This document shows, in pieces, positions 11,501 through 57,930 of a stretch of 64,000 bases of DNA. A model generated the notes under the pieces. That model saw nothing but the letters and a program-made list of their open reading frames with translations, was not told where the DNA came from and did not search any database. The translations under genes and the position numbers were made by a program. This stretch comes from Mustelus asterias. Taxonomy: Eukaryota. Within the stretch, counting starts at the first letter, position 1; every line of letters starts with the position of its first letter. The stretch is taken from positions 63,488,001-63,552,000 of the forward strand of contig NC_135822.1 in the NCBI RefSeq assembly GCF_964213995.1. Direction: 5' to 3'.

Positions 11501-12113
11501 ATCCTGGTAAACCTCCTCTGCACTCTCTCTAAAGCCTCCAAGTCCTTCCGGTAGTGTGACGACCAGAACTGGGCGTAGTATTCCAAATGCAGCCGAACCA
11601 ACATTCTATACAACCGCAACATCAGACCCCAACTTTTATACTCTTTGCCCCGTCCTATAAAGGCAAGCATGCCATATGCCTTCTTCACTACCTTTTCCAC
11701 CTGTGCCGTCACCTTCAAGGATCTGTGGACGTGCACACCCAGGTCCCTCTGCGTATCTACACCCTTTATGGTTCTGCCATTTATCGTATAACTCCCCCCT
11801 ACGTTAGTTCCACCAAAATGCATCACTTCGCATTTATCAGGATTGAACTCCATTTGCCATTTCTTTGCCCAAATTTCCAGCCTATCTATATCCTTCTGTA
11901 GCCGCTGACAATGTTCCTCACTATCTGCAAATCCAGCCATTTTCGTGTCGTCCGCAAACTTACTGATCACCCCAGTTACACCTTCTTCCAGATCGTTTAT
12001 ATAAATCACAAGCAGCAGAGGTCCCAATACAGAGCCCTGCGGAACACCACTAGGCACAGGCATCCAGCCGGAAAAAGACCCTTCCACTACCACCCTCTGT
12101 CTTCAGTGACCAA

Positions 12114-12588
12114 GATGTGGAGATGCCGGCGTTGGACTGGGGTAAACACAGTAAGAAGTTTAACAACACCAGGTTAAAGTCCAACAGGTTTATTTGGTAG
12201 GAAAAGCCACACAAGCTTTCGGAGCTGCAAGCCCCTTCTTCAGGTGAGTGGGAATTCTGTTCACAAACAGAGCATATAAAGACACAGACTCAATTTACAT
12301 GAATAATGGTTGGAATGCGAATACTTACAACTAATCAAGTCTTTAAGAAACAAAACAATGTGAGTGGAGAGAGAATGCGAATACATTCCAACCATTATTC
12401 ATGTAAATTGAGTCTGTGTCTTTATATGCTCTGTTTGTGAACAGAATTCCCACTCACCTGAAGAAGGGGCTTAGAGCTCCGAAAGCTTGTGTGGCTTTTG
12501 CTACCAAATAAACCTGTTGGACTTTAACCTGGTGTTGTTAAACTTCTTACTGTGTTTACCCCAGTCCAACGCCAGCATCTCCACATCA
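12114..12588. mobile_element. Penelope-like element 3' ends, inverted pair with both tails pointing outward
   Basis: Same sequence as the 3' end of the 56858 element. Left arm 12114-12373, right arm 12384-12588. Confidence 0.9.
12449..12494 (+). ncRNA. Minimal hammerhead motif (mirror copy 12207-12252 on minus strand, loop uugca)
   Basis: Same core as 57823-57868. Confidence 0.78.
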
Positions 12589-13559
12589 TATTAGTTTAAA
12601 CCCACCCGAACTGCACTAGCAAAACTCCCAGCCAGGATATTCGTGCCCTTCCAATTTAGTTGTGACCCATCCTTGTACAGGTGCCCTCCTCTCTTGAAAA
12701 CTTCCCAGTGATCCAGGAGTATGAATCCCTCCCTCCTGGACCAGTCCTTTAGCCAAGCGTTCAATTGTACTATCTCCCTATTCCTGCCTCACTGGCCCGA
12801 GGCATTGGGAGCAGCCCAGAGATTGCCACTCTGGAGGCCCTACATTTTAGCCAATTTCCCAACTCCCTGAATTGCTCTCGTAGGATCCCCCTGCTCTTCC
12901 TATGTACGTAATTTGCACCAATGTGTACAATGAAATAAAGAAGTTTTGCTGGTCTGACTTGTGTGCGTCTCCAATGCTCGTTAATATTTCAGTAATTCCA
13001 TTTTGTTCACCATCACGACATAGAAATACAGGACAGAAACATGCAAACTGGTTTGTCAAGTGTTAAATGTTCTGAATGTCCATCACCTGGAAGCATTATC
13101 ATGTTCAGCATGCAGTGAAAGTAATACAGAAATGACACCGAGGAATTCAGAACTAATTTGTTGCTGTTCCTTGAATCCATTTGCGCAGCTTTCACAGAGA
13201 TTTTGGTCGGTCCAGAGAATCATTGATGGGAAATATCTCGGCTCTCGATTTTCTGGTTCAGACTCCCATAGAGATGATAACCGTGAGGGGAAGTAACTCA
13301 ATTGTTCATTACCACTTTCTGTTTTTGTAAAACGCTAACTCCTTCTCCCTGTTGCAGAGCTTCCTTGAGCCAGAGATGAACTTCCGGACTGTGCCGACTA
13401 GGGGAATTTTTACAGTAACTTCATTGTGTTAATGTAAGCCTTACTTGTGATGAATAAATAAACTTTACTCCCTCATATTTGTGCCATCACCAATTTGCCT
13501 ATTTGCATTTCCATGGCATTGCCTGACTTTACCCCCCATCAGCTGCTGCAGAAATATTC

Positions 13560-14130
13560 ATTTGCGCCCTTCTTACCTCTAGGCTGACTACTCCAGTGCA
13601 GCCCTGGCTGGTCTCCGACATTCTGCCCTCTGTAAACTTGTCATCCAAATCTGTGCTGTCCCTGTCATAACTTGCATCAAGTCCCATTCCCCTATTACCC
13701 AGAATCCTGCTGACCTACATTAGCTCCCAATCAAGCAGCAGCATTTTGATTTTAAAATTTTCATCCATCAGGGTTTTGCCCTCCCCATTCCTGTAACCTC
13801 CTCTCACACCACAGCCCTCAGAGATATCTGCACTGCTTGAATTGTGGCCGCTTGTGCATCACCGATTTTAATCGCTCAACTATGAGTGGCCGTGTCTTCA
13901 ATTGCCCAGGTCCCAGTTCTGGAATACCTTTCCTACACCTCTGGCTCTCAATTTCACTTTCCTCCTTTGAGACGTTTCTTCAAGCTACCTCTTCCATCAA
14001 ACCTTTGGTCATCTGACCTAATATCTTCTTAAGTGGCTCAGTGTCATACTTCACTTTGCAATGCTTCTGTCAAATGCCCTGCAATATTTAATTACATTAA
14101 AGGAGCTTTAAGTTAAAGGCTATTGTTGCT
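13560..14130 (+). mobile_element. L2-type LINE 3' remnant
   Basis: Decayed nucleotide match to the SRLDY.N..L.GL..PITP.L..LHWLP..RIDFKI region. Similar remnants at about 2620-3080, 34480-34790 and 60050-60400. Confidence 0.55.
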
Positions 14131-16440
14131 GAAATACAAGTTGATTGCCACTGATAGACTACAGGTGTCTAAATGGCAAACAAACTTCTAAAACATTCAC
14201 ACAAAGCATCTTGGCTATGCCTGCCACGATTCAGTGGTCATCTCCTGCTGAGGTGAGAAAGGAAGAGAATCATGCATTCAAATCCATGTGCTACAACTCT
14301 CAATCAGATAATAACATAACCCTGAGCATCGGTGGGGCACCTCCTCACAACTGATGATGACATGGCACTGGCAAACACGCAAGAGTGAGCTGTTCACGTT
14401 ATGTCACGGCAATAATTCAGAACCTGCTGAATATTTGATAGAGGAAGAAAAATAAAATTATTCAGATGAAAGTAAACAGAAAGTGCATTATGACTTGAGA
14501 GGATTTAATTGGGTTTTCACCAAGTAATTACCAGTCACAATGTTTTATGCTTTATGGATTCTCCATCACGGTAGACAACGGAATCCACATTTACTAATGG
14601 TTGATCCATAACACGCATAGAAAAGGTTTCATTTGAGGAATGCTGACAGTTTCCCAGGACACTGGGCAAACCTAAGCATACAGTGACTGAACATTCTGTT
14701 CAAAGATCTTGTGCAATCACATCTCTTTCGCGAGGTTATATATTAAAATCAATTGTTTTTAAGCTGTAATTACATAACCTGGCAATTGTGTTAGTCTGTG
14801 TTCGAACCAATGCTAAATATTGTGCAAGTTCATGACCTATAGTCATATACTCTATCGGTATCCTGTTTTATCAAGGGAAAACTGAACCTGCAACTCTCAA
14901 ATCGAATCTTTCAGATCTTGGCTGGCTGGACTTGCAAGCAATTCAATTCAAAAGTTTTAACTTGTAGTTAATGCGAACTTAGTTAATCTCAGTCTGGGAG
15001 GAAGACAGTGCTATACCCAGCCTCAAAAATAACTGTACAGAGAGAGGCAAAAGGAAATAAAACAGCCAAGGTTCTTAATCATTGCCCACTAATCTCAGGT
15101 GGAACCATCAAGTGGCAATAGCATTACGTCAGTTAGCCTTAACTCAAATGTGTGAGTTCACATATGAGAAAATATGAGTTGAGTCAGGTCCAAAGTGATG
15201 TCATATCACCTGTGCAACTCGAAGAAGGCACATTGCCTTCAGATTTGTTGAGCAAAATACACTTACAAATTGAATGAATTTGATTTTTGCTGTTTGAGAA
15301 GCTTTCAACAAAATGATCACACCAAATTGTATTGGATTACGTCAGATCAGTCACACATGGACAACATCACAACGACTTCCAGAGTCAATTTAAAAGTAGG
15401 AGCTCTACAACGGGGCCTCATGACAAAGCGTTTGGTGTGGATCGAAAACAGGGGTCTATCTCATACATAGCTTCACCACACACGAGTGCGCCATCAAGAT
15501 ATAGTTGCTACTGGGCAATGGTCTGTCCAGCCAATTCAATAGGTCTTGATTATTTCTTGTGTACATTTCTGGCAGTGCCTCAGTTTCAATCTGAAGAAGA
15601 AAAACCACTATCATGAGGTATGCGATAAGTATGATCTTATCAAGGAGCTTTTCAAAAACGTCTGGCACTTGGTTTACTGCACAACATATCACCCTCCTTT
15701 ATCATGTTGACATGTACCACCTCTTTAGTGTTATTTAGTGTTTTGTTTCCTTTCTACCCCTCTTAAAGTTCGGTTAATTTGGCTCCTCTTAATTCTAGTT
15801 AAACTCTGAAGTAAGTCTTACCTTATCACAGAGTCCAGGGTGTTTTCACTGATCCTGAAACAAAATGAACATTCTGATTACAGGTTTCAGATAAGAAGTT
15901 GGAAAACTTTCTGGAAATTACATTATTTTTGGATGGATCCTATGCCTCCAATCGAGCTTACTTCTGTTTTTGAAAAACACCAAAGCATTGCAAGTCCAGA
16001 CCTCCTTTGCACTTTAACTCAAGAGAATTGAAGGAATAGTGAAGTGTATAACTGCAACGCGCATATATGAGAGAGACAGATAGATATTGGGAACAACCCC
16101 TTAAAAAGGTGAAAGCAATACCTATAATGAATTATTTTCTTGTAAATCATTATACTATTTTATACTTTCCAACTGTAGAACAGAAATAGGAGCAGACAAC
16201 TTAAGCCTGCTCCATCATTCAATACAATAATTTGACCAAACTTGAACTAAACCTGATACAATGCGTGATCCATTCCAAACTGACATATTCTTAAGAATGG
16301 TTCTAAAATAATTCACTAGTTGTTTAGGTATGTTGGTTTTTAACATTTTCAGGTTAATTTTAAAAAATCAGCTGCTAATCATACACAAACAAAATCACAG
16401 CATGCTTCTATGTGGCTGCTTCCTGTCTCAAACAAACTGC

Positions 16441-16796
16441 AAGAAGTTTAACAACACCAGGTTAAAGTCCAACAGGTTTATTTGGTAGCAAAAGCCACAC
16501 AAGCTTTCGGAGCTCTAAGCCCCTTCTTCAGGTGAGTGGGAATTCTGTTCACAAACAGAGCTTATAAAGACACAGACTCAATTTACATGAATAATGGTTG
16601 GAATGCGAATACTTACAACTAATCAAGTTTTTAAGAAACAAAACAATGTGAGTGGAGAGAGCATCAAGACAGGCTAAAAAGATGTGTATTGTCTCCAGAC
16701 AAGACAGCCAGTGAAATTCTGCAGGTCCACGCAACTGTGGGGGTTACAAATAGTGCGACATGAACCCAATAACAAATAGTGTGACATGAACCCAAT
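16441..16796 (-). mobile_element. Penelope-like element 3' fragment lacking the 32-nt tail
   Basis: Near-identical to the left arm of the 56858 element. TSD aacaaactgc at 16431-16440 and 16797-16806. Confidence 0.9.
16495..16540 (-). ncRNA. Minimal hammerhead motif, sense to NUDCD3
   Basis: Reverse complement reads ccactcac-CUGAAGA-aggggcuuagagcucc-GAAA-gcuu-gugugg. Confidence 0.78.
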
Positions 16797-17045
16797 AACA
16801 AACTGCCTCAGAGACAACAGGTCAAATCTTTGTAACACTTACTTTCCAGTTAGACTGAGTAATGGCCATTACTGCAGATGCGTTTAAACTCATGTAACGC
16901 AAATAAATTAAATAGACCGCCACTAAGCCAAAACTATACAAAAATGCTCAATTTCTGTCATAAGCCCTTCCAAAGAAAATACTTCCAACTCTCTCAGATA
17001 ACATTAAGATAGACTAGATAGCTGTAGTGTTCACCCATAAATGTT

Positions 17046-17051
17046 TTTATT
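17046..17051 (-). terminator. Candidate NUDCD3 polyadenylation signal (AATAAA)
   Basis: Canonical AATAAA on the minus strand about 365 nt past the stop codon. Usage unverified. Confidence 0.4.
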
Positions 17052-17414
17052 GTTTAAGTTCAAAACCATGAGTCGCATATAAATATCAATTCTTTCAGGC
17101 AAAGGGATAAGGACAGTATCAAACACTATTTTCAATGCTCACCAGAAAGCACTCTAAATCACAAACATGGAGAAATTGCTGAAAATAACTGGAGATAACA
17201 AATCAAGTCTCAGAAAAATTCAAAATATGCAACGATTAACAGAAATAAAAATGAATCAAAATAAATACAGAGACTTGGCAACCAATGCTTTGCAATGACT
17301 TCGTTCTGAAGCTCAGAGAAAGTCTCTCATTACTCGAGCAGAGTACAATCCATGATTTACGCTCATCTTCGGTGGCGTTCGGGCTCAGGTGTGTGCCTTC
17401 TGCGGCCGGAGAAA

Positions 17415-17525
17415 TCAGAACTGCACTGCTCCAGGAGAAATGTTAAACAGAGATGGGTCAAACGTCTGCCCTTTAAACGGTGAACCTTCAGCGTCCCAGC
17501 CCTTCTTCAACATCTCGTGCACTTT
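17415..17525 (-). CDS. NUDCD3: NUDCD3 terminal coding exon 6 (KVHEMLKKGWDAEGSPFKGQTFDPSLFNISPGAVQF*)
   Basis: Translated by hand (absent from the ORF track). ttctag| acceptor, TGA at 17415-17417. The six exons total 1086 nt = 361 aa plus stop. Confidence 0.97.
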   Translation of the reverse strand, partial: KVHEMLKKGWDAEGSPFKGQTFDPSLFNISPGAVQF

Positions 17526-17639
17526 CTAGAAACCGTCAACAAATAACAAATAGTTTGAAAAACGAAGAGAAAGTATGTCATTTGTCTCAGTTTGTAACAA
17601 CATATACCACATGCACGAGTTCCTGCCTAGTTACAAACT

Positions 17640-17723
17640 GACAACACCAGGTTAAAGTCCAACCTGGTGTTGTGAGGCTTCTTACTGTGCTTACCCCAGT
17701 CCAACGCCGGCATCTCCACATCA
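17640..17723. mobile_element. Mini inverted PLE insertion (subfamily B) in NUDCD3 intron 5
   Basis: 13-bp arms acaacaccaggtt/aacctggtgttgt plus tail. TSD tagttacaaact at 17628-17639 and 17724-17735. Confidence 0.85.
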
Positions 17724-18449
17724 TAGTTACAAACTCACAGATGCAACTTAAAAACTGCCAGATGAAACCACTGTCCATACATTTACATTTAAGCAGCCAA
17801 ATGAAAAGCCAGAGATCACAAGAGTTGGGAGAAATAGAAGTCAGTTGGAAAATGATCTTTTCACCAGCAGAGTCCAACAACAGCTTCAGGACAAATTAAG
17901 CAAAGGCTTCTCTTTCTATCAGGGTCCAGATTATGAGTCAGTATCAAACCAGCTCCTTGTGGTTGAAAGTTCACAATGTGAAACCATCCAGACGGACAGC
18001 ATCATCTGTTGCTAAAAATTGGTAATCTCATTCCGAGAGGCCTCAAATTCAGGTAGGGCGGTAAAAATGAAGCGCACAGTAAGAAGTTTTGAAGTTTGAA
18101 TAAAATTATATTATTGTAGCAAGAAGTTGTAACTTCATTTATTCTGGACAGGGTCTGACCTTGGAATGCAAAACATTCAAGCCCCGCATAGAACTGCACT
18201 CTCCACCCCTCAAACACTCGGCTTAACATACCATAAACAATGTAGTAACACACAGGCTTTGCCACTTACAATCATGCAGAGAATCTGCTTAAGCAATCAA
18301 AGGCCCTTCACTCCCTGGGGAATTAGTGTTTTGCCCATTCCTTTTCAGATCTTTACCCACCATTTATACCTACCTTTTGTCACCATCTGTTGTGTGTAAA
18401 AGTTACTTTTGAACTCAAGAGCAGCTTTGGTAAAGGTGTGCCGGACTAA

Positions 18450-18738
18450 TGGTTTGATTCCATCCTCAGGTGACTGTGCGGAGTTTGCACATTCTCCCCA
18501 TGTCTGCATGGGTTTCCTCCAGATGCTCCGGTTTCCTCCCACAGTCCAAAGATGCGCGGGTTAGGTGAATTGGCCATGCTAAATTGCCACTTAGTGTCCC
18601 AAGATGTATAGATTAGGGGGATTAGTGGGGTAAATACATGGGTTACAAGGATAGGGTTTGGGTAAAATACTCGTCAGAGGGTCAGTGCCGGCTCGATGGA
18701 CTGAATGGTCTCCTTCTGCACTGTCGGGATTCGATGAT
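18450..18738 (+). mobile_element. tRNA-derived SINE, 5'-eroded
   Basis: Same core and tail as 7028-7366. Confidence 0.8.
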
Positions 18739-19479
18739 TGGAGGGAAAAGGCAAGTAATATGAAAGAAAAATCTTTGACCCACTTTGTAGATACAGAAGG
18801 AAAGAAACAAAACTTGTTTTGTCTTGCCGACAGTTTTTAAAAAAAGTCACATCAGCGTTCCTTAAAATAGTCTCTAATGATCCAAATGCCTTGGCTGCCA
18901 TTTCATTCGGCCATCAGCACAATTCTATATTTAGATGCAATTAAAACATGTCTCCTGCAGAACATTTATCTACGTTCAAGTGTTTTGCCAATACCATAAT
19001 TTGCGTGTGGGAGTAACACTCTTGTTCTCGGAAGGATTCTGGCTACTTATTGTGCAGCAAAACCTTTGTTCATTAACAATACCAGTCACATAATTGGGAG
19101 AAATTGAAAAAACAAACAGAATATGTAAAGTGGCTGAAAGATGCAAATCCATGGTACAGGGACAGACCATTTTGCCCAAATGACCTTGAGTAGTATCCAT
19201 GTTTGCCACCAGTGTCATCCCACAGCTTTGGGTAATGGTACACCCAGCAGAAACCAGGCTTTTAATCAAAACTCTTAAATAGAAGCAAAAATCTGAATCA
19301 TTGGTAGACAAAGGAAAGCCTCATCAGCTCTCAAAACTTTTCCCGTACTTCACATCAAATTATTTTTGAAGACATTAACTTCTGTAAGGTAGTCACTCAC
19401 AGTAATGGCTTTGATCCAGATAAAATGACCACAAACAACAGGTTTATCTGAGTTCATTATGTTTGTGTCTGATAGATTC

Positions 19480-19703
19480 TGTTGATGGATGTTAAATGCA
19501 GAATTGTTTAAAGGTAATAGGCTAACGGGTGTTGGGCATTGATTAGGTAATTATATTAAAATGTTTATATAAAGGAGTCAGCCAATGCTGTCAGGTATGG
19601 ACATATTAGAGTTGAGAATTAAGCTCTGCAATAAACAGCCTCCAGCAAAAGCATTATAGTCTGTGTCTTCTTCACAGCCAGATTTGGGAGTTGCTCTGAC
19701 ACA
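19480..19703 (+). mobile_element. Possible short solo LTR
   Basis: TG..CA bounds with TATATAAAG and AATAAA in the expected order. No clean TSD. Confidence 0.3.
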
Positions 19704-20646
19704 TCAGTGGTGCTGGTCAAGACACTGAGAATACTTCACTCATCTTTAAATAGTGTCATACAAGATGTAACATATATCTGATGCATGAAAAGAAGAAAGT
19801 GGGCCTTGCACAATGTTACTGACCTTGCAGCATTCCCTCATCACTGCAATATCAGCCAAAAATAAAAACAGAAAACACTGGAAATACTCGGCAGGTCTGA
19901 CAACATCTGACAATGTTATTTGCTTGAAACAATAATTCACGTTGCAGGTAAAGGACCTTTCTCTCTCTGCAGATGCTGCCAGATCCGCTGAGTATTTTCA
20001 GCATTTTGTTTTGATTTCAGATTTCCAGCATCTACAGTATTTTGCTTCTCTTTACTTCTCTCTCAGAAACGAGTATGTGGAAGAGGTTCTGCTCTCCTTT
20101 CTGGCTGGATTCCCATTTGTTTCTTATCCCTTCATTGCTTTCCATTTCCCTCATTGTGTTTGACACGGGCTAGAATTCTCCAACCTCGCCCGCGGCTGGG
20201 ATTCACAACTCCCACAGCAGTGAATGGAGTTTTGGCCGAGCACTAAATTCTCCATTCTCGCTGGCAACAGTGCTGGCGCAAACGAGATCAGGAGAAGCCC
20301 AGCCACGGTGGCCACCAAAACTCACTTTCTCAGCAACTGTCTCCAGCACCAATTTATTCCAAGTGGATTCGAACTGAAATTCCATCCTTCGTGTTTCGAT
20401 TCTACCCATGATTGCAGGTGTCTCAAAGATATTCAACATTCCATGAATTGTTGTTCTGGCTGCATCGGGATCCACACACACTGCCATATGTACATTCTCG
20501 ATCTCTCTCTCTCCAGAGGCACCAACTCAATCTCATCTCAAAGCTGCCCTGCTCTGTTGTTTCATTTCATCCCACAGCTTGCTCTTCCTTTCAGGGGTTA
20601 AGGAATGCCAACTCCAGCAAGTCTGGTCCTTGATCTGAAACATTAA

Positions 20647-31210: not shown

Positions 31211-31281
31211 AAGACCTCTTACAGGTTAACTTATTTGAACCAGGTGGAATCTGGTTCAAAATGCGTGAGATTGGCTATTAC

Positions 31282-38725: not shown

Positions 38726-38788
38726 GTGACATTGATTTGTTGGCAATTCAAAACAACTAATATCTGCAGAGCAAGGTTCCACAAACAG

Positions 38789-43269: not shown

Positions 43270-44270
43270 GACTATAAGACATAAGAGCATTCAGGCCATT
43301 CAACCCATCGAGACTACTCCGCCAATCAATAAGAACATGACTGATCTGATGTAATAATCCTCAATTCGGCTTTCCCTGGTCCCACAAGGGGAAATAATTT
43401 CTCAGTATCTACCCTGTCAAGCCCCCTGAGAATCCTATATGTTTCAAAAAGGTCACCTCTCATTCTTCTAAACACCATTGAATACAAACCCAACCTATTC
43501 AACCACTCCTCATAATAAAATCCCTCCATACCCAAGATCAACTTATGAATCTTCTCTTGCCTGCCTCCAATGCCAGTATATCTTTCCTTAGATAAGGGAC
43601 CCAAAACCATTCCCAGTATTCCAGGTGTGGTCTAACTAGTGCCTCATATCATTTTAGCAAGACTTCACTATTTTTATACTCCATTCCTTTTGAAATAAAG
43701 TCCAACATTCCATTTGCCTTCCCTATTACCTGCTGAACTTGCATGCTTGCTTTTTGTCATTTATGTACAAGGATCCCCAAATCCCTCTGTGCTGCAGCTT
43801 TCTGCCATCTTTCTCCATTTAAATAGCATTCAGTTCCTTTATTCTTCCTACCAATGTACATAATTTAATATTTTCCTATACTATATTCCATCTGCCAAGT
43901 TTTTACCCATTCACTTAGCCAGTCTATAGTCCTCTGTAGACTCTTAGTGTCATCCTCATCACTTGCTTTCCCACCCATCTTTGTGTCATCCACAAACTTG
44001 GCAATAGTGCATTCACTCCCCTCATCCAAGTTACTAATATATATTGTAAATAATTGTGGCCCAACACTGGGGCACTCCACTAGTTAAAAGTTGCCATCCT
44101 GAAAATGCCCCTCTTGTCCCAACTGCCTATTAGTTCACCAATCCTCTAGCTATGCTATTATCCCAACACCACGAGCTCTCATATTAAATAGCCTTTTGTG
44201 TGGTACCTTATTGAATGCTTTTTGGAAATCCAAGTATATTACATCTACTGGTTCCCCATTATCTAACCTG
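43270..44270 (-). mobile_element. Decayed CR1 LINE 3' part
   Basis: Frameshifted peptides GPQLFTIYISNL..KFVDDTK and YEEWLNRLGLYS..RRMRGDL. Confidence 0.85.
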
Positions 44271-46062
44271 CATGGCAACGACCAATTGCATGGCTGGTGA
44301 TGGGGCCTGCTCAGGCATGGAACCTGGTTCTGAGATGGTCCAAGTGCTCCTTCAGGGTTTTACCTGAATGTTGACCTTGTAAGATACTAGTTCCATTTTT
44401 TCCATAATAATCCCAGGGATTCACCGGCGACCGTTCCTGAAGTTCCTCACAAGAACAAGAGCACTTGTTCCTAAAGTACTGTTTGTCCAATGGAGCAACA
44501 CCTGTTGTTGGTGTGGTCCGCTGTAATCAAACAGAAGTTGTGCCAGTTTAGTCTCCATAGATGCTGCTAATTGTTTCTTCATGCCATTTTGAAGGTTTGA
44601 ACCGCCTGTTCTGCCAGTCCATTTGATGGTGGGTGATAAGGTGCAGTTTTGATGCATTGGATGCCATTGGAGAGCAGAAGTTTTGGAAATCACCGCTAGT
44701 AAAGACTATGCCATTATCGGAAACCAGGACTTTCAGTATCCCACGTATACTGAAGCGTTCAATTGTATTCTCAATTGTAGCCTGAGAAGTTGTGGAGCCT
44801 ATGCAGTGCACCTCCAACCACTTGGACTGTACTTCCACCATGATTAAAATGATGGAACTCAAAGGGGCCTGCGAAGTCCACATGCACACGCACCCATGGC
44901 CCACAAGGCCATTCCCATGGGTGTTGGGAGGCTAAGGGTGGGTGTTTTTGATTTGGCTGGCACAGGTCACTTTGCTTCAAGTCTGTGATGTGAGATCCAA
45001 AAACCAGGCCACCACATGTTCCTCCCAGCCAGCATCTTCATTTTTGATACTCGCGGGTGGCCATTATGTAGTTCCATTAATATTGGACGTCATCTTCGGG
45101 GCAGAACAATTACTCGGGACCCCCAAAGAATGATCCAATCCTCAACACTAAATTCAGCTTTCTTCATGAAATAAGGTTTCATTTCTTCAGATAGTTGTCC
45201 TTGGAATCCCCCGAATAGAATCATGTGTCTTATTTTGGATAAGGATCTTTTTAGGTCCCAACTTTAATCTGCCTCGCTGATGCTGACAATGTCTCTGAAA
45301 AGTTTAGGGTCATTACACAACCTCTTCCAATGCTGGTAAAGGAGCCAGGTATGTGGACAACGGGTGGTGACTCAACATTAGCTATCTGGGTTCCAGGGCA
45401 GCGTTCCAGAAGATATTTTAGGCCACCAATAACAAGGCCCAGCACTGTTTCAAAGCAGAAGTGATGGGGGGAATTGCCTTGTCTTCTTTGAAGAGGCCTA
45501 ATAAGGATATATGGTCAATGACTATAAAATTCCATAGACTGTAGACACTACTTCACACCAAATACGACCACCAACCCTTCTCAATTTGAGAATCCCTTTG
45601 CTCTGCAGCTGAAAGGGTCCTGGAGGCATTCGCGATGGGCTTTTCCACCCTGTCTTTCCAGCAATGTGACAGCACTGCAACAACCCTGTACGGGAAAGCA
45701 CCACAAGTTCTTCAGGTTGAAACGAGCCAGAAAGTTAGATGACAGTAACTGATGTTTAACTTCTGCCTGCAGAGCTTCCCAAGACCATTTCTGATATTTT
45801 TGTAGTCGGGCACGCAAGGAGGCCAGCATGGAAGCCAAATTCAGGATGAATTTTCCATAATAATTGACTCATCCCCCAGGAAAGATTTTAACAACATTGT
45901 GTTCCTTGGGGTTGGTGCTTTTGATATCTTTTACCGTATCCTCTACTGGATGTAACCCCTTCCCATCTCATCAATAGCCTGAATAGGTTATTTTGGCCAC
46001 TTGGAAAATGCATTTCTCCCTCTTCAAGCAAACTCCCACTCTGCAAAATCTCTGTAAGATAT

Positions 46063-46104
46063 CCACTCCATCTGACGAAGGAGCTGTGCTCCGAAAGTTT
46101 ATGG
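46063..46104 (+). ncRNA. Minimal hammerhead motif, variant B
   Basis: ccau-CUGACGA-a-GGAGC-ugu-GCUCC-GAAA-gu-UU-augg. Confidence 0.7.
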
Positions 46105-46195
46105 TATTTGCTACCAAATAAACCTGTTGGACTTTAACCTGTTGTGAGACTTCTTACTGTGCTTACCCCAGTCCAACGCCGGCATCTCCACATCA
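46063..46195 (+). mobile_element. Penelope-like element 3' fragment (subfamily B) with hammerhead, inserted into Gypsy pol
   Basis: Ends in ...ccagtccaacgccggcatctccacatca and interrupts the Gypsy RT reading region. Confidence 0.85.
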
Positions 46196-47724
46196 AGACT
46201 TCAGTTGGCCAGGTGTTCGTGTTCTGAAGCCCCGGGACCAATACGTCATCCAAGTTTACTGAGACTTTAGGTAGCCCTTGAAGGATGTTCTCCATAACTT
46301 TGAAAAATAGCACATGCTGACAAGAACCCAAAGGGCAAACAGGCAAACTCATAGGGTTCCTTATGTGTGTTGGTTGTCACATATTTCAGGGAGGACTTAC
46401 CCAATTCAAGCTCAAGATAGGCGTGGCTCATGTCCAATTTGGAAAACATCTTGTTGACTTAGCGTGCAAATCTTCGATTCAGGGCATGGGGTACCTTTCC
46501 AGTTTCAAGACCCAATTGCCTGGTAATTTACAGTCCTCACAAAGACAAACTGATTTGCTGAGCTTAACAGGGACTCCGGCTGCAGCCCGTTCTGCAAATT
46601 GCAAGGCGGAAGCTTTCAAGGTACCTTAGTTCAATTTCCACCTTCTCCAGCATGGAGTAAGGGACTGGTCTGACTCTGAAATACCGAGGTGTAACATTGG
46701 CGCCAATGGAGATCTTGAGCTTGACTGCTTTTATATTTCCCAGGCCCTCTTGAAAAATTCCATGGTATCTGCAAATAACTTGTTACAGTCGCCCACACCT
46801 AGCCTGAAGATCTCCAACCAGTTCAACTGGATCTGCTGGAGCCAATCTCTCCCCATAAGACTTGATGTGTGGGCCTGTACAGCAATGAGTGGGAGATGGG
46901 CTGATTGTTGCCTGTAAGTTACTGGGACCACTGTGGTGCATTTTATTGGTCAAGGTTCCACTGTGTAGACTGCCCTTTGTTTCTTCCAACCTTAAGAGTT
47001 GAATGCTTCTAAGTCTTTTCACTGATAATGAAGACTGCAGCTCCCACATCCACATCCATCTTCAAGGGATAGCCATTCAATAGTAATTCCACAATTATCG
47101 GGGCAACTTTTGTTGTAATAACGTAATTCAGTTGTACCTTTCCTGTCTCTGGAAGAGGGGATACCTACATGGTATGCTCAGGTAGGGGCCTCGGCTTTCT
47201 TCCCAGGTAGCACACGTCTTGCCTGAAACTTCACTACAGCTGTCTTCTTTGACAGTGCTTGCAATAATCCGTCATCTGGCAAGTGCGCCTTTATGAACTA
47301 TATTCTCTCATATTCTTGAGGTCACTATCTTCTCTTGACAGTCTGGTGGTGACATTAGGGTTCCTAAATCGCAAGGGTCCTTTTAACACCTGGTTTACAC
47401 AAGCAGTCTCCATTGAGGACTGATGACAAGAGGTCCCTCCCCCTAGTTGGAGGACATTGCTGCCTATTGCACCTTGTAATTCCTGAGCTCCTTTTTCTGC
47501 ATTCTCAAGTGACAAGGCTATTGTAACAATTTTTTTAAAGTCCAAATTGGATTCTGCCAACAGCTTCTTTTACGTGGTTAAGTCGTTATGCCACATACCA
47601 ATCTATCTCACAACATTTCATGAAGAGGTGGTCCAAATTTGCAATGTTCAGCTAATTTCCGCAATCTAGCCAAGAACTCAGTGACAAGATTCTCGAGGAG
47701 TTCTCCCAGCCATTTTGAATCTCC

Positions 47725-47990: not shown

Positions 47991-49300
47991 ATCTGTTTTT
48001 TTGTCTCCTTCAATTTTGTTAGCATGGTAGTAGTATTGTGCTCAGTGTACCCCACTTGTGGCATCGGCCTCAAGTTTCCAGAAGAGGCATAATGGCTTGT
48101 CCTTACCAGGTTGTTTGGATAGAAATAGAGAGAAAAGAAATTCTCCTCATCGCCAATGTGGTCATTCAGCCAAACGTCAGTTTCCCACCAGCAATACCCT
48201 CTATTATGCACTGAAGGAAAGGGCTGTGACTGCAGCTTATAGTCAGGTAGTCTCCACCTCAGGACCTACAACCACGGACCGGATGGAGGTTTAAGAACCC
48301 CACTGACCGCTACCCATTGGGCAAGCCTCTGCTCAATCAATAAGGCAGCTTGTACTCCACAAAGCCCATGGGGAGATTGATTGATGATCCTCCATTGCCA
48401 TCATAACAATTGTGCTCACGAGAGGGCAGGCTTCCTAATTCTTCCCTTCTTAAACTGAGCAGCAATGAAACTAAAGTTTAAAACATCCAAAACTGAATTA
48501 GCTTACTGAATATTTTTAGTGCAGCAGAATGAGGTAACTGAAGACATCAGGAAGGGAGGAGACAAATAGCAAAGAAAAACTGGAGAGAGACACAAGAATG
48601 CTGAAAGCAAGACTGTATGTGGAAGAAATTACATTTATCTAGCACCTTCAGTGATTTAAGGATATTTTGAAGTGTTTTACAGCCAATTAGCATGTCTTCA
48701 CTGTTGTAAGATAGGAAATGTGGTACTCAGCTAGATTCCAGAAACAGCAATACATATTTTTAATCTAGTGATGTCAACTTACGATAAAGATTGACCAGGA
48801 CATCAGGAAGGACTATGGTGCTCTTTTTCCAACTGCACTTGGACATCTTTTACATTGATCTGGAGGGGGCAGGTGGATGTTCAGCTTCAAGTCTCATCAG
48901 AAAAATGGTACCTTCAACAATGTAGAATTCTCTTGGTTTTAGTTTAGATTTTGTACTCAGTCTTTGAGTGGGATATGAACTACAAGCTTCTGACTCAGAG
49001 GAGAGACTGCAACTGCAGAGCCAATGATATACATGTCCACATGTGTGCTTTGTATAGAAACATGACAGGATGCTAAACAAAATGACTCTTTAATCCACCA
49101 ACATATAACTTAGCAATTTTATAAACGCATAGTGCAGATGTGTCTAAATCATACAGAATCAAACATGGGGGAAATGGCCAGCCAGCTTTTACTTGGTGTT
49201 GTACACCAAGTGACAAATGTACAGACATTTTGCAAGAGGGTATCCCCGGAGGTGTCCTTACTGCTTATTCTTTATGTTCCTGCATCTTGAATTCAGCAGC

Positions 49301-49414
<114 letters not shown>

Positions 49415-50129
49415 TTATTCCACAACCTCAGAGTACCCAAAACACTTCAGGATCAATGAGGTACTGTGGAAGTGTGGTCGCTGTCATGTCAGAAATATGG
49501 AAGCCAAATTGTGCACAGCAACGTCCCCCAAACAGTAATATGGCAAGGACAAATAATCTGTATCTTAGTCATGTTGATTAAGGATTAAATATGGTTACTG
49601 CACTAGGAATAACTCCTTTTATTCTTCTTCAAACTAGTGGCAGAAATCTTTCAGGCCAACCAAAAACAGCAGATATTCCTTGATTTAATATTGTTTCAGA
49701 AACACAGCACCTGCAAAAGTGCAATATTCCCTCATGACTATATTGGAATGTCAGCCTGGATTTTGTGTTCATGTCTCTGGAATGGAACATCAACCCATTA
49801 CCTTCTGGCTCAGAGGCAAAAGTGCGATCAAGTGCCACGGCTGGCAACGAGGAATTATTACTTATATAAAAAATAAAATTAGTTTAATTAATGTCACTTC
49901 AGTTTTTTATTATTGGTATTGTACGGTAACATAATTTCATCGAGAGAATCCAGTCAAAATTCACTGCATTATAAGTGCAATGTGTTGGCATATAACTGCA
50001 ACTTACAGCAGATTATCTAAGATATTTCTTCAGTGTTTGGATCGGTGGCAAGGCCAACATTTATTGACCTTCCTAATTTTGCTTGAGAAGGTGGTGGTGA
50101 CCAGCTTCTGGAACTGCTTAGGTGAGGTG

Positions 50130-51250
50130 AGAGTGACTACCCTTGCCATCAAGGCAGCACTTTACCAAGTGAGGTATCAAAGGGGCCCAGTAAAACTGGA
50201 GTCAATGGGAATCAGGGGGAAAGCTCTCCGCTGTTGGAATCATACCTGGCAAAAGAAAGATGGTTGTGCTTGTTTGAGGTCAATCATTTCAGTCCTGGGA
50301 CACCGCTGCAGGAGTTCGTCAGGGTAGTGTCCTAGGCGCAGCTATCTTTAGCTGCTTTCACTCAGAAGTGGGGATGTTTGCTGCTGACTGCACAATGTTG
50401 AGCACCATTTGCGAGGAATCATGTCCAAATGCAGAAAGACCTGGACAACATCCAGGCTTGGGCTGACAAGTTGCAAGTGACATTTACACCACAAGTGCCA
50501 GGCAATGACCATCTCCAACAAAGGAGAATCTAACTATTGCCCCTTGACATTCAATGGCATGACCATCACTGAATTCCCAACGATCAACATCCTGGGGGCG
50601 GGGGGTAGGGGGGGGGCGGTTTTAACCATTGACCAGAAACTGAACTCGACCAGTCATAGAAATACTGTGGCCACAGCTCAGGGGTTAAGATTCTGGTGGC
50701 GAGTTCAACTCTCGGCTCCCCAAAGCCTGTCCACCATCTACAAGGCACAAGTCTGGAGTGTGATGGAGTCCTCTCCAATTGCATGGATGAATGCAGCTCC
50801 AATAGAACTCAAGAAGCTCGACATCATCAGAACAAAGTATCCCACCTGATTGGCATCCCATCCACAAATATTCACTGCCTCCGCCACCAATGCATGTGGC
50901 ACTAATCGTTTATAACATCTGCAAGATGTAAAGCAACTCACCATGGCTCTTTCGACAGCGCCTTCCAAACCTGTGACCACTAACACCGAGTTGGACAAGG
51001 GCAGCAGATGCATGGGAACACCACTAGATGCAAGTTCCCCTCCAAGCCACACACCATCCAACTTGGAATTTTCCTTCACTGCCATTCCTTTACTGTCTCT
51101 GGGTCAAAATCCTGGAACTCCCTCCAAAACAGCACAATGGGTGTACATACACCAAATGGACTGCAGTGTCTCAGGAAAGCAGCGGATCACAACCTTGTCA
51201 AGAGTAATTAATGCTGGCCCAGCCAGGGACGCTGACATCCCATGAAATAG
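50130..51250 (+). mobile_element. Decayed non-LTR element (CR1/L2 group, second family), 3' part
   Basis: ggagttcgtcagggtagtgtcctagg (GVPQGSVLG-like) and atgtttgctgctgac (FADD-like), plus family 3' tail. Related pieces at 26150-26370, 27130-27490, 28960-29330 and 42960-43260. Confidence 0.75.
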
Positions 51251-51661
51251 TGTTGTAAAAACTGCTGCGAGGGAGGGATATCAGGATTTTGACGCAGTGA
51301 CAGAGAAGTTAGATTTTCTTTATAAGGAATGAAGCAACATTTGCAGTTTCCAACTGCAATCCAACTGTATTAATTGGATTGTTTTGTATGTTTATTCTTC
51401 AGGTAGGGATAGAGCGAATTATTTTCCTTGAAGTGAAGAATTAGTTAAACTGAACTCATCTCCAAGATAGCATTGCTATAATCAAGAGCATCACAAGTAA
51501 TGCCAGGAGATGTTACTCAGAATCATAAAGTGCAGAGGGAGGCCATTCAGCTAAACATGCCTGTGTTGATGTAACAGTCACAGCATTTCATGGATATAAG
51601 GGAGTTTGAGTTCAAAGACTGTTCGGTACACTGAAGGCCAATGAACTCAATTTCTTCTTAC

Positions 51662-51745
51662 CTGTTTCTTATCAAACAAGGAATGGCTGCTCAAACTCAT
51701 GTGCTTGAAGTGCTTGGCATATCTGCGAAGGTCTCGTTCAAACAA
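51662..51745 (-). CDS. POLM: POLM exon 10 (LFERDLRRYAKHFKHMSLSSHSLFDKKQ)
   Basis: Hand-translated thumb motif F.R.LRR. ctctag| acceptor, CAG|gtaaga donor, 84 nt. Confidence 0.92.
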
Positions 51746-51929
51746 CTAGAGAATGCAAGAAAAATAAATAGGAAAGAAATAGTCAAATTTCAATTCTTTG
51801 GAGTAAATTTCTTTTACTGTATTTCCAGTTGATGGGTTTTTCTCACTTCCTAACAGCAAAACCAAACCCTCCCCCCTGCAACCACAAACTGAAATGATGA
51901 GTGACAGCAATGTCGGGGTCATGCTTGAG

Positions 51930-52870
51930 GACTTGTTTTTAAATTCATTGATGGGATGTGGGCATCGCTGGCTCGACCAGCATTTATTGCTCATCCCTAG
52001 TTACCCTTCAGAAGGTGGTGCTAAGCTGCCGCCTTGAACAGCCGCAGTCCCAGAGGTGTATGTACACCCACAGTGCTGTTAGGAGGGAATTCCAAGATTT
52101 TGACCCAGTGACAATGAAGGAACGACAATATATTTCCAAGTCAGGATGGGGAGCAACTTGAAGGGGAACCTTCAAATAGTGGTGTTCCTCGGTGTCTTCT
52201 GTTCTTGCCCTTGTCGATGGTAGTCGCTGTGGGTTTGGAAGATGCTGCTTAAGGAGCCTATAGTACATCTTGTAGCTAGTGCACATGGCTGTCCCTGTTT
52301 ATCAGTGGTGGAGGGAGTGAATGTTTGTGGAAGGGGTATCAATCAAGCGGGCTGCTTCATCCTGGATGGTGTCGAGTTTCTTTACTGTTGTTGGAGCTGC
52401 ACTCATCCAAGCAAGTGGAGAGTATTTTATTACACTCCTGACTTGCACCTTGTAAATGGTGGACAGGCTTTGGGGAGTTCAGAGGCGAGTTACTTGCCTA
52501 GCCTATGATCTGCTCTGGTATCCACAGTATTTATATGGTTCAGCCAGTTTTGTTTCTAGTCAATGGTCGTCCCCTGGAGGTTAATAGTGGGGAATTCAGC
52601 AATTGTAATGTCACTAAACGTCAAGGGGTGATGGTTAGATCCTCTCTTATTGAAGGTGGTCATTGCCTGGCTGTTACTTGCCACTTGTCAGCCCAAGCCC
52701 GGATATTGTCCAGGTCTTGCTGCATTTGAACATGAACTACTTCAATGTCTGAGGAATCTCGAATGGTACTGAACATTGTGAAGTCATCAGCGAACATTCC
52801 CAATTCTGACCTTACGATGGACGGAAGGTCATTGATGTAGTAGCTGTAATTGGTTGGGTCTAAGACATTA
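51930..52870 (-). mobile_element. Same non-LTR family, opposite orientation
   Basis: ORF YINDLPSIVRSELGMFADD..MQQDLDNIRAWADKWQV; reverse-complement similarity to 50130-51250. Confidence 0.8.
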
Positions 52871-52879
52871 CCCCGAGTG

Positions 52880-53250
52880 ATGGAGTTCTCCAAAGTGGTC
52901 AACCAGTCTGTGTTTAATCTCCCCGATGTAGAAGAGACCGTATTGTGCTCAGCGAATACAGTAGACTAAATCAAAAGAAGTGCAAGTAAATGATTGCTTC
53001 ACCTGGAAGGATTGTTTGGGGCCTTGCACAGTGAAGGTTTAAGTGTTACACCTATTGTGATTGCAGAGGAAGGCACCATGGGAAGGGGATGAGGTGTTGG
53101 GGTGACAGAGCAATGGACCAGGGTGCCATGAAGGGATCAATCCCTTCAGAATTCTAACAGGTGTGGTGATGATGTGTTTGGTAGTGGCATCGTGCTAGAG
53201 AAATAGCAAAAGATAATTATTTGCATACAGAGGCTGGCGGGGTGGAAAGT
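52880..53250 (-). mobile_element. Older Penelope-like GIY-YIG fragment
   Basis: Hand translation FQVKQSFTCTSFDLVYCIR*AQYGLFYIGEIKHRLVD. Confidence 0.7.
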
Positions 53251-53663
53251 GTGGACAAGTGAGGAAGTATAGTTGAGGTAGCTGAGAGAGTCAATGGGCT
53301 TGTAATGATTATTGGTTGACAGTCTGTCACCAGAAATGGAGACAGATAATGAGAAGGAAAATGGAAAGGAATGAAGGCTTTCAGTAACAATATCCATTAG
53401 ACACGATACAAACTGAATCATAAATAGTTCCTCAATATTACATCATTCAGGCAGTAAAATTGAAAATACAGGAAATGAATCGCTTATCTATCTCCGTGAA
53501 GAGAAAAGACAGAATGTTTTGAATTAAGTACTTTTGTCAACTTGTGGATTGATCCAAAATGTTCAACAGTCCTGTCAGTTTCTAAATTGGTCAGCTATAC
53601 AATTCTGCTTTTTTGTTTTGTTTTTGACAATCATAGTGTCTTGTTGCACTTCATTAAACTTAC

Positions 53664-53996
53664 CCGTGAACCTGTCCATCCTAATAAGGCATAAGCATAC
53701 TGGCCAAAGGGTGCAACAACCAGATCCACTCTCACAGCCTTCCAGTCCTTCTCCTTTGCTGCAGCAGTAGTTATGTGCTGAGTGGTGCCTGCATGGCTAG
53801 TCAGTCTAATTCCTCTAGGCTCATTCTCAGCCAAAGAGCCATTGCTGCAGGGTCTGCTCGGTTCTACATTGTTTACCATCTCCTTCTGCAGTTTGAAGAT
53901 CGAAAAACATTTTGCAAAGTGATCAAATATCTCAGGCTCCTGGTTTTTCCATTCGTGGTAACTGTTGTCTGTGATGTCGTCATACAATATTATACC
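53664..53996 (-). CDS. POLM: POLM exon 9, palm (GIILYDD...DHFAKCFSIFKL...WKAVRVDLVVAP...ALLGWTGSR)
   Basis: Third catalytic Asp in RVDL and the GW steric gate. ttttag| acceptor, CGG|gtaagt donor, 333 nt. Confidence 0.93.
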
Positions 53997-54638
53997 CTAA
54001 AATAATTGGAGAATAAACTTAATGATGAATATTTACTTCTTCCACAGGGTTTTTTCCTCTTTTAAAGGGTGACTGCATGAGAATTCTTGCATGTTGACAA
54101 GACATTTATTATGCAAGGGACTTAATGTTAAAAGGAACTAGATTAAGCAACAAAAATTGCAAAACCTTTGCCAACAAGGTTAAAGCACCACTTCTCTATT
54201 GTCTTGTTTTGACCAAAATTTCTTAAAATCTTCTCATTTTCAAACTCAAATTTCAAAATAGTCATGGATAAAGCAAATTGAAAACAATTGTCTGGATTTT
54301 GCAACAGGAAAAATAATGACTAAGAGTGAAACCCTCGGGGGGAAGTTCGGGAGCGGGGGAACCCCGATTACAGGCGTCCCTCAGGCAGGCACAGTGCATC
54401 CATGATGTTGGCGGAAGGAAATTCACGTCTCTGCAAATCCAACCAAACATGAGTGAAGTTGAAAAGCTGAATAAAAATTAGGTTTTCAGCCCCCTTGTCA
54501 TATTTAAAATGACACCCACTTCCTTTAACCGATTGGTTGCCTGCCCAATTTCCAGTTAAAGTTCTCAGTGGATTTTTAAAACTTAAACCCTCTATCTGAG
54601 CTAGACTCATCCTTTTTCCGTTAAAATTCTCTCCACAT

Positions 54639-55803
54639 TGTGATGACCTAGGTGCTGGGAAAAGCCAATAAATTATTTTGCACATAATGTCTGTCTAAGC
54701 CCAAAATGGATATTCTGAAAGTCAGTTAACTGGTTTCCTGATTATGAAACTGTTAGGATCCAAATGCCTAGGTGACTTTGGAAGACAAGAGAATGAACCG
54801 CTAAAGGGAAAGAACAATGTGAGAATGGATGCTTCTCTTAATGGTTTTGGGAAATATTCTGTTATTCTGTAAAGAAGGCTACATGTAAATGATTTAATTA
54901 AGATGGGTAAAGGTTACAAAAGTCAGGTTATCTGTGGGGGGAGGGCTAAGTTATGAAAGGATACAGGTGGCAGATTTGTGCATTTCTGATGAGATATTAT
55001 GGTGGGTTTGAGGTACAAGTAAATAGGTTGGATCGAACATTTAAATTTTAGATAAATTCAGAGTTTGTCTGAATATCAAAGGGAGGTCAGAGTTGACAAG
55101 AAAGAGTTTGCAAACCATTGGTAAATAGAAGAGGCTACATTCCATTTTACTGACCCGAAAGCACAGACAAAATAGAAACATGAACATTTTTTATATTTTG
55201 GAAAAGTTAAGTTCAAAGAAGTGTGGAGGAAAATAGAATCACAGATGAAAGGGAAAAACGATACACAAGAAGTGAAATTGAGAGGGTTTGTTGATGGTTG
55301 TGGGAAGACCTCCTGGACACGGCTCCAGACCGGGAGAAGTTACAGTTTTAATTAGCCATCCAGTCAAGCCAGAAAAGCAGTTTTATGCCCAAAGATATGC
55401 AGGTTAGGTGGACTGGCCTTGCTGAATTGCTCCTTAGGAGCCCAAGTTGTGTAGCTAAAGTGGATCAGGGGTTACGGGGATTGGGAAAGAATGGTGGGGT
55501 GGGGAGTATTGTGGGCCTGGGTGAGATGCTGAGTTGCTGCAGACTCAATGGGTCGAATGGCCTCCTTCTCAGGGATTCTACGTCTGAAAGTTTCTGATTT
55601 ACACAGCAGAGTGGAAACGGATTTGAGAGCTCACGTGGTATACTTTATTAAAGCAACAGCTGCTTTGCCTTGGGGAATATTACTCATTTTTTAGAATTAA
55701 AATAGATCAACATCAAGTGTTGCCTTGGTACTTTAAGTAGGGAATCTTTTTCAAGACTGATTTTAACTTGTGTAACTGTAATTTGTGTTTTATTTTCTTC
55801 TTA
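54639..55803 (+). mobile_element. Possible LTR remnant continuing after the CR1 (aataaa at about 58026)
   Basis: TGTGA start, AT-rich LTR-like body, AATAAA directly after the CR1 insertion. 3' end not defined. Confidence 0.35.
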
Positions 55804-56857
55804 GAACATAGAACAGTACAGCACAGTACAGGCCCTTTGGCCCTCAATGTTATGCCAAGCTTTGTCCGAAACCAAGATCAAGCTATCCCACTCCCTATCA
55901 TTCTAGTGTGCTCCATGTGCCTATCCAATAACCGCTTAAATGTTCCTAAAGTGTCCGACGCCACTATCACAGCAGGCAATCCATTCCACATCCCAACCAC
56001 TCTCTGCGTAAAGAACCTACCTCGGACATCCCTCCTATATCTCCCACCGTGAACCTTATAGTTATGCCCCCTCATAACAGCTACATCCACCCGAGGAAAT
56101 AGTCTCTGAACGTCCACTCTATCTATCCCCCTCATCATCTTATAAACCTCTATTAAGTCACCTCTCATCCTCCTCCACTCTAAAGAGAAAAGCCCTAGCT
56201 CCCTCAACCTTTCCTCATAAAACCTACCCTCCAAACCAAGCAGCATCCTGGTAAATCTCCTCTGCACTCCTTCCAATGCTTCCACATCCTTTTTATAGTG
56301 AGGTGACCAGAACTGCACACAATATTCCAAATGTGGTCTCACCAAGGTCCTGTACAGTTGCAGCATAACCCCACGGCTCTTAAACTCCAACCCCCTGTTA
56401 ATAAACGCTAACACACTATAGGTCTTCTTCACGGCTCTATCCACTTGAGTGGCAACCTTTAGAGATCTGTGGATATGAACCGCAAGATCTCTCTGTTCCT
56501 CCACATTCCTCAGAACCCTGCCGTTGACCCTGTAATCCACATTTAAATTTGTCCTACCAAAATGAATCACCTCGCACTTATCAGGGTTAAACTCCATCTG
56601 CCATTTTTCGGCCCAGCTCTGCATCCTATCTATGTCTCTTTGCAGCCTACAACAGCCCTCCACCTCATCCACTACTCCACCAATCTTGGCGTCATCAGCA
56701 AATTTACTGATCCACCCTTCAGCCCCCTCCTCCAAGTCATTGATAAAAATCACAAATAGCAGAGGACCCAGCACTGATCCCTGTGGTACACCGCTGGTAA
56801 CTGGTCTCCAGTCTGAAAATTTTCCATCCACCACCACCCTCTGTCTTCTATGAGATA

Positions 56858-57930
56858 TGATGTGGAGATGCCGGCGTTGGACTGGGGTAAACACAGTAAG
56901 AAGTTTAACAACACCAGGTTAAAGTCCAACAGGTTTATTTGGTAGCAAAAGCCACACAAGCTTTCGGAGCTCTAAGCCCCTTCTTCAGGTGAGTGGGAAT
57001 TCTGTTCACAAACAGAGCTTATAAAGACACAGACTCAATTTACATGAATAATGGTTGGAATGCGAATACTTACAACTAATCAAGTCTTTAAGAAACAAAA
57101 CAATGTGAGTGGAGAGAGCATCAAGACAGGCTAAAAAGATGTGTATCGTCTCCAGACAAGACAGCCAGTGAAACTCTGCAGGTCCACGCAACTGTGGGAG
57201 TTACAAATAGTGTGACATGAACCCAATATCCCGGTTGAGGCCGTCCTCGTGTGTGCGAAACTTGGCTATCAGTTTCTGCTCAGCGACTCTGCGCTGTCGT
57301 GTGTCGCGAAGGCCGCCTTGGAGAACGCTTACCCGAATATCAGAGGCCGAATGGCCGTGACCACTGAAGTGCTCCCCAACAGGAAGAGAACAGTCTTGCC
57401 TGGTGATTGACAATCACCAGGCAAGACTGTTCTCTTCCTGTTGGGGAGCACTTCAGTGGTCACGGCCATTCGGCCTCTGATATTCGGGTAAGCGTTCTCC
57501 AAGGCGGCCTTCGCGACACACGACAGCGCAGAGTCGCTGAGCAGAAACTGATAGCCAAGTTTCGCACACACGAGGACGGCCTCAACCGGGATATTGGGTT
57601 CATGTCACACTATTTGTAACTCCCACAGTTGCGTGGACCTGCAGAGTTTCACTGGCTGTCTTGTCTGGAGACGATACACATCTTTTTAGCCTGTCTTGAT
57701 GCTCTCTCCACTCACATTGTTTTGTTTCTTAAAGACTTGATTAGTTGTAAGTATTCGCATTCCAACCATTATTCATGTAAATTGAGTCTGTGTCTTTATA
57801 AGCTCTGTTTGTGAACAGAATTCCCACTCACCTGAAGAAGGGGCTTAGAGCTCCGAAAGCTTGTGTGGCTTTTGCTACCAAATAAACCTGTTGGACTTTA
57901 ACCTGGTGTTGTTAAACTTCTTACTGTGTT
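56858..57930. mobile_element. Penelope-like element, 5'-truncated inverted pair (520-bp arms, 1-nt spacer) with GIY-YIG C-terminus and hammerheads
   Basis: Mirror ORFs ...PVGEHFSGHGHS...AEQKLIAKFRTHEDGLNRD resemble the PLE GIY-YIG C-terminus. Centre ctggtgattg-a-caatcaccag at 57410. TSD (tt)ctatgagata at 56846-56857 and 57929-57940. Confidence 0.9.
57823..57868 (+). ncRNA. Minimal type I hammerhead ribozyme motif (mirror copy 56952-56997 on minus strand)
   Basis: cac-CUGAAGA-a-GGGGC-uuaga-GCUCC-GAAA-GC-UU-gug: conserved core, 5-bp stem II, palindromic AAGCUU in place of stem III. Confidence 0.8.

Follow-up and report, generated by a model that had tools for sequence, protein, structure and literature searches.

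In a 64,000-nucleotide stretch of Mustelus asterias DNA (contig NC_135822.1, positions 63,488,001 to 63,552,000; hereafter the window), two copies of a Penelope-like element (PLE) are joined to CR1 retrotransposons of two diverged subfamilies at the same base of the reverse transcriptase (RT) gene. The shared base likely reflects a preference of the PLE for a spaced palindrome, TG-N16-CA, that is spelled by conserved RT codons. PLE integration is poorly understood. A target rule with two sides and a set stagger would supply the in-vitro PLE assay already in use with a well-defined substrate, and a way to ask whether priming of both strands by two protomers makes the inverted repeat and the tail. 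Moreover, a protein-level constraint in one retroelement can offer another a place to land, with no targeting having evolved, which counsels caution before nested insertions are read as antagonism.

Two PLE insertions at one base of the CR1 RT gene

The PLE-CR1 junctions lie at 12113/12114 (copy 1) and 56857/56858 (copy 2), each 9 nt from the anchor ccctctgtcttc and in the same orientation. Read in the CR1 sense, both PLE tails, whose ends differ by 1 nt, meet the host within the Leu codon of the RT motif W-L-x-H-x-R-Q-R-V-V-V. This position, termed site 1, is near residue 611-616 of the 936-aa ORF2. Position, codon and orientation agree with an initial annotation of this DNA. The hosts comprise the following segments:

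11061..12113, minus strand: CR1 host 1, C-terminal half of RT and 3' tail (tblastn to the full-length CR1 ORF2 P0034, aa 615-899, 70%)
55803..56857, minus strand: CR1 host 2, C-terminal half of RT and 3' tail (93% to P0034 aa 611-936; RVT_1 E 4e-14)
57941..58055, minus strand: CR1 host 2 continuing upstream of the site (P0034 aa 574-616)

P0034, the reference for both hosts, carries RT and endonuclease Pfam families. The hosts have the hallmarks of a CR1 long interspersed element, namely an APE-RT ORF2 of CR1 type, an esterase ORF1 and a 3' tail of short repeats, the ORF1 part being weak. They are presumably CR1, the name given in the initial annotation.

Identity between the two hosts is 68.8% over 923 nt, in keeping with their earlier description as clearly diverged, versus 98.1-99.0% between the PLE arms of the two copies. 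The insertions are therefore independent and later than the host split, and we reject inheritance of the junction from one chimera, as the initial annotation had done. That copy 2 possesses its own target-site duplication was also correct: 12 nt are duplicated (56846-56857 / 57929-57940), and CR1 resumes past the far side. Under a uniform model, such a coincidence of two copies within one window has a probability of ~1e-5.

A third, older CR1-like RT piece (43380-44266, minus strand, 42% to P0034) spans the homologous site without a PLE and is degraded and frameshifted there.

A spaced palindrome at insertion sites

Beyond CR1, PLE tails in the window meet DNA of several kinds, and CA stands at +15/+16 of the flank in six of seven tail junctions, among them the two ends of copy 1 (P 1.6e-6; with the RT site counted once, 5/6 and P 1.8e-5; 0.004 if offset and dinucleotide are treated as fully post hoc). 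Of the tail junctions with the motif, three are outside CR1: one in a SINE, another in what is left of an LTR element and the third in unannotated DNA. The only other letters common among the seven flanks are T at position 1 (6/7, P 0.003) and A or C at position 14 (6/7), with positions 2-13 lacking conservation. The seven-flank comparison thus rules out as a target signal the resemblance previously seen just past the tail (tatctcat, tttctcat, ttggtcac). The T at position 1 is indeed common; the remainder is mostly not signal, and what the flanks share is the CA at positions 15-16.

Rebuilding the empty sites gave TG-N16-CA in register in four of six cases, a 17-nt spacing in one and no motif in one. 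With a background of 374 such motifs in 64,000 positions (0.6%), the probability of four in six is 1.7e-8, or 2e-6 without copy 2. The motif surrounds a 12-nt core, and duplications of 12-13 nt are found at three of five motif-type sites. Matching between tail and target extends to about 1 nt in six of seven junctions. Primer pairing adds ~1 nt to site choice, and 3'-tail pairing, which the initial annotation had offered as a cause, is not supported as one.

Conserved codons behind site 1

Trp is encoded by TGG and Gln by CAA or CAG, so that these residues six codons apart always produce TG-N16-CA. Among the 120 best CR1-type RT hits screened, 11 lacked the anchor motif and were set aside; W-x5-Q(H) is present in 97 of the 109 kept, comprising 13/13 in the shark-like group (>=65% identity) and 84/96 in the others. 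Retention of this pair in CR1 RT indicates that site 1 is fixed by protein constraint, and the same base is hit in diverged CR1 subfamilies most likely because the conserved Trp and Gln codons spell TG-N16-CA.

Three proteins with bacterial names on short contigs (P0051, P0117 and P0126) are 69-80% identical to this shark CR1 RT and are probably contamination.

CR1 hotspots in public-run contigs

Contigs from four of 23 listed public runs (X20-X23; one study, at most three samples) were aligned to copy 2. Figures for joints rest on 15 listed joints of 295, and insertions that share the junction of copy 2 align straight through and hence are uncounted. The 15 comprise nine CR1-PLE joints, two skips internal to CR1, two internal to the PLE, and two opposite-strand PLE-PLE joints. 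Site 1 accounts for five of those listed, running from 56853-56856 to the tail-less PLE end (56891-56899), and joints at this boundary are present in all four runs. At site 1 the tail-less ends and the tail share one left boundary, which a symmetric cut would predict. Another three listed joints, from 56409-56411 to the PLE tail, define a second hotspot ~450 nt away:

56396..56415, no strand: site 2, a TG-N16-CA that host 1 lacks and that is unoccupied in this copy (joints 56409-56411 to tail)

Its agreement in register with the motif has a chance of 0.003-0.005; unlike site 1, its motif rests on synonymous codons. Summed depth of site-1 joints was 2011 (X20) and 3821 (X21), versus ~19 and 28 for longer records. 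Rough depth-based estimates give 107-137 copies at site 1 and 47-78 at site 2, corresponding to rough enrichments over the window rate (7 tails/64 kb) of at least 20-33x and at least 9-18x, respectively. The rough lower bound for site 1 is within the ~114x attainable from the motif alone. The CR1 site is a real hotspot, and joints and motif statistics together uphold the earlier proposal that a target preference makes it one. Its share of all insertions is nonetheless small: site-1 joints make up 0.01-0.02% of tail-bin depth, an inflated denominator, and the true share is presumably <1%.

In each deep run, 10-16 contigs couple the tail end with the tail-less end on opposite strands (56857 to 56892/56893), which is what PLEs inserted next to or within one another should give.

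Alternative explanations

One rival reading is that the PLE recognizes a long CR1 sequence, or is tethered to CR1 RNA or protein, having evolved to inactivate CR1 much as Tx1L sits in Tx1D. In its favor, two of seven window tails are at site 1, a third is in the probable end of a CR1 ORF1, site 1 is strongly enriched in contigs, and some motif sites of host 2 are not seen as hotspots. However, the three non-CR1 tail junctions follow the same short motif, a second CR1 site exists that host 1 lacks, at least 690 (X20), at least 669 (X21) and 191 (X23) contigs run on from the tail end into flanks that are unrelated (agreement 0.35), and site-1 joints are a minute part of tail-bin depth. CR1 targeting is thus not supported, and we judge it improbable. 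The related idea in the initial annotation, that one retroelement disables another as a strategy, is likewise not supported, with four of seven tails outside CR1, three of them bearing the same motif, and hundreds of contigs per run having unrelated flanks. CR1 disruption is more plausibly a by-product.

Still less credence is due to site choice by pairing of the target primer with RNA just past the tail. Such pairing would account for the first-position T, for the one shared letter at most tail-less joints listed and for the several letters that a stub at 1751 has in common with the RNA continuation suggested by contigs, but not for unconserved flank positions 2-13 or for a CA 15 nt away from the junction; in PMC11167929, initiation is reported to occur at RNA sites non-homologous to the cut DNA. 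If old chimeras, few in number or just one, had been amplified (CR1 copied together with the PLE inside it, segmental duplication, gene conversion), a single event in many copies could yield a high-depth joint contig. Such amplification is very unlikely given hosts that are 69% and inserts that are 98-99% identical, a duplication private to copy 2, and at least five distinct tail-less joints at site 1. Finally, two events in one window, with many windows scanned, might be thought a product of chance. This can hardly be so, as more joints occur at the same boundary in all four runs and the motif statistics hold at unrelated sites.

Several points weigh against the preference for TG-N16-CA. The sample is small (seven tail junctions and six empty sites), and the ~1e-5 coincidence alone would be weak across the whole many-window scan. 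The insertion at 1751-1784 misses the motif, one site has the 17-nt spacing, the 46063 site has just a 3-nt duplication in a host that looks locally altered, and one listed joint (56786 to 56895) is at neither hotspot and has no motif. Host 2 contains five further TG-N16-CA sites, just one of which is among the 15 of 295 listed joints. Of the four unlisted, one is private to this copy, two have A/T beside a half-site and one (55952) is unexplained; two dinucleotides are evidently not sufficient, and further context matters. The hotspot figures cover host-2-like CR1 alone, contig depth is a crude proxy for copies and not a copy number, and the study behind X20-X23 may be the window's own source. 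Additionally, the only characterized PLE enzyme favors ATT and not this motif (PMC11167929).

Structure of the two copies

Copy 2 is a textbook PLE insertion, whose arms of 520 nt each show no differences:

56842..56857, no strand: target site 1, left side, made up of the TG half-site, 2 nt and the duplication's first copy (56846-56857)
56858..56889, minus strand: one-sided PLE tail, 32 nt
56890..57409, minus strand: tailed arm, 520 nt
57411..57930, plus strand: inverted arm without tail
57413..57616, plus strand: end of the PLE ORF, 68 aa that form the C-terminus of its GIY-YIG endonuclease (named shark PLE proteins match at 84-94%)
57929..57944, no strand: second duplication copy, 2 nt, CA half-site

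Within 56858-56918 (minus strand), the tail is in frame with the downstream CR1 RT, with a stop 21 codons upstream; this is probably without consequence.

Copy 1 differs in having a tail at each end and a right flank from another part of the host:

12098..12113, minus strand: the half of target site 1 that remains in host 1, with CA at +15/+16 counted from the tail
12114..12376, minus strand: left arm, tail included
12384..12588, plus strand: right arm, tail also included
12589..12604, plus strand: half target site at the right junction, CA at +15/+16
12594..12788, minus strand: collinear with host 1 and probably the end of the CR1 ORF1 esterase (PDB 4c1b ORF1-encoded protein, E 0.059, weak, the best of seven hits)

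The ORF1-end piece had no Pfam match. A target duplication was not found for copy 1, the longest word common to both flanks being 6 nt, and ~2 kb of CR1 would be absent here if both flanks belong to one element. Its arms differ at 4/204 positions, all within 115 nt of the tail and two of them adjacent, a clustering that suggests two templates. Most likely, copy 1 represents two insertions in opposite orientations, at the RT site and at an ORF1-end site, fused by a later deletion, which may have arisen by recombination between like-oriented arms of PLEs at the two motif sites. Alternatively, one event may have used two sites. At the center of copy 1 (12377-12383), a short piece of arm is in local inversion, suggesting template switching or repair at a fold-back.

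A proposed mechanism

In the model that we favor, the GIY-YIG endonuclease, probably as two protomers, would read both half-sites and nick the strands 12 nt apart, at points 2 nt inward of the respective half-sites. Both 3' ends would then serve as primers for cDNA on element RNA, with synthesis starting at the tail end in one case and ~33-42 nt upstream in the other. The balance tips slightly toward such dual priming as the origin of the tailed arm, the tail-less inverted arm and the 12-nt duplication, with a symmetric cutter presumably priming both strands. The scheme agrees with what is described for the anole PLE, apart from its preference for ATT (PMC11167929). Dimeric GIY-YIG enzymes that cut palindromes are known among restriction enzymes (PMC3161791). 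A more tentative proposal is that the shark PLE may be a dimeric spaced-palindrome cutter fused to RT, with TG-N16-CA as its target, a fixed 12-nt stagger and both ends priming at once. If true, a dimeric cutter with dual priming would explain the layout of inverted pseudo-long terminal repeats (pLTRs) plus tail seen in PLEs, and site 1 could not be lost by synonymous change in any CR1 lineage, Trp-x5-Gln forcing it.

Element identity and comparison with known systems

The last 68 codons of the PLE are up to 94% identical to shark proteins (31 hits among 37 candidates). The 68 aa from the window match the C-terminus of P0009, a protein with RVT_1 and a GIY-YIG motif, at 84% identity, the window copies being truncated. 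Among the 31 relatives, 14 have GIY-YIG with two internal cysteines, many hits stopping short of the motif, and 13 have a CX4CxxC linker, in a region absent from the window copies. The RT and GIY-YIG features, together with the inverted pLTR, one-sided 30-40 nt tail and duplication of copy 2, are those of an endonuclease-bearing (EN+) PLE. The 68-aa end itself had no Pfam match, a search with the PLE peptide returned no related loci, and the tail patterns matched no contig from metagenomes, genomes or viruses. A search for a chimeric tail-plus-CR1 peptide gave no candidate at protein lengths of 44-140 aa, an uninformative result. The pLTR had no Rfam match to a hammerhead ribozyme. A hairpin does form between CUGAAGA and GAAA, the hammerhead core motif, with a z of -0.20; neither result establishes a hammerhead.

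A CX2-5CxxC linker upstream of GIY-YIG is assigned to the Neptune and Nematis clades (PMC8557442); by the linker in its relatives, the shark PLE may belong there. Like EN+ PLEs of Neptune/Nematis type, it has RT followed by a C-terminal GIY-YIG, the linker in close relatives, and an inverted pLTR with a 30-40 nt one-sided tail. Unlike them, with their microsatellite bias and variable duplication length, it appears to use a spaced palindrome with 12-13 nt duplicated at three of five motif-type sites (PMC8557442). None of eight junction flanks in our data was a microsatellite, this bias being a tendency of Neptune/Nematis and not diagnostic. PAc, a Poseidon PLE of Anolis, is similar in that two RT start sites on the RNA bracket the tail, both strands are cleaved and extended, and a dimer is predicted; it belongs to a different clade, favors AT-rich DNA and ATT, and has no bipartite motif reported in the available text (PMC11167929). 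Pen2a_Av/Pen2 of Adineta vaga likewise shows inverted pLTRs, a 31-nt tail, 8-10 nt duplications and nesting in retroelements, but as single copies, for which the accessible text gives no recurrent site or motif (PMC3846280).

Outside PLEs, human nested-transposon hotspots also occupy single positions in host repeats, one being used in both orientations, although the elements are Alu, hAT, ERV1 and MaLR (PMC2836564). Tx1L of Xenopus is a retroelement at one site of another transposon; it is stringent and uses an APE endonuclease, whereas the shark PLE is dispersed, with CR1 a small share of its targets (PMC1950540). A Tx1L-type pattern would place almost every copy at a single site in a single host repeat; it is contradicted by five of seven tails elsewhere and by diverse loose ends. 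PLE layout, hotspots of one transposon in another and stringent transposon targeting are already published. The literature searched held neither a spaced-palindrome PLE target nor a PLE hotspot in CR1, with supplements, Fig. S1B of PMC11167929, Repbase reports and subscription journals outside its scope; the accessible parts of 10.64898/2026.07.22.740005 and PMC12602865 likewise contain nothing on either.

Seven shark gene models (P0012, P0015, P0017, P0020, P0025, P0026 and P0029) contain fragments of the PLE endonuclease, reflecting either mis-annotation or exonisation.

Other PLE insertions in the window

Five further PLE insertions lie in the window:

8245..8345, plus strand: short PLE in a SINE, 13-nt duplication, TG-N16-CA
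17641..17723, plus strand: short PLE in unannotated DNA, 12-nt duplication, TG-N16-CA
46063..46195, plus strand: older PLE inside what remains of an LTR element; TG and CA are in register and 3 nt are duplicated
16441..16796, minus strand: PLE without tail, 10-nt duplication, TG-N17-CA
1751..1784, minus strand: PLE stub of 35 nt, not fitting the motif

Other inverted repeats, at 42.6-43.9 kb and 50.5-52.7 kb, have no PLE match. The host of the 46063 insertion is a decayed LTR-retrotransposon remnant (44500-47200), split by this copy of an older PLE subfamily; its peptides are, we presume, RT- and integrase-like. The target of the 1751 stub (region 1743-1796) has no motif, and several of its letters match the RNA that continues beyond the tail; the stub is possibly a microhomology-primed insertion. 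At two junctions (57920-57944 and 17624-17643), the tail-less PLE end contributes TG (or CA) in register, regenerating TG-N16-CA at the element's own border, which could favor repeated insertion at the same place.

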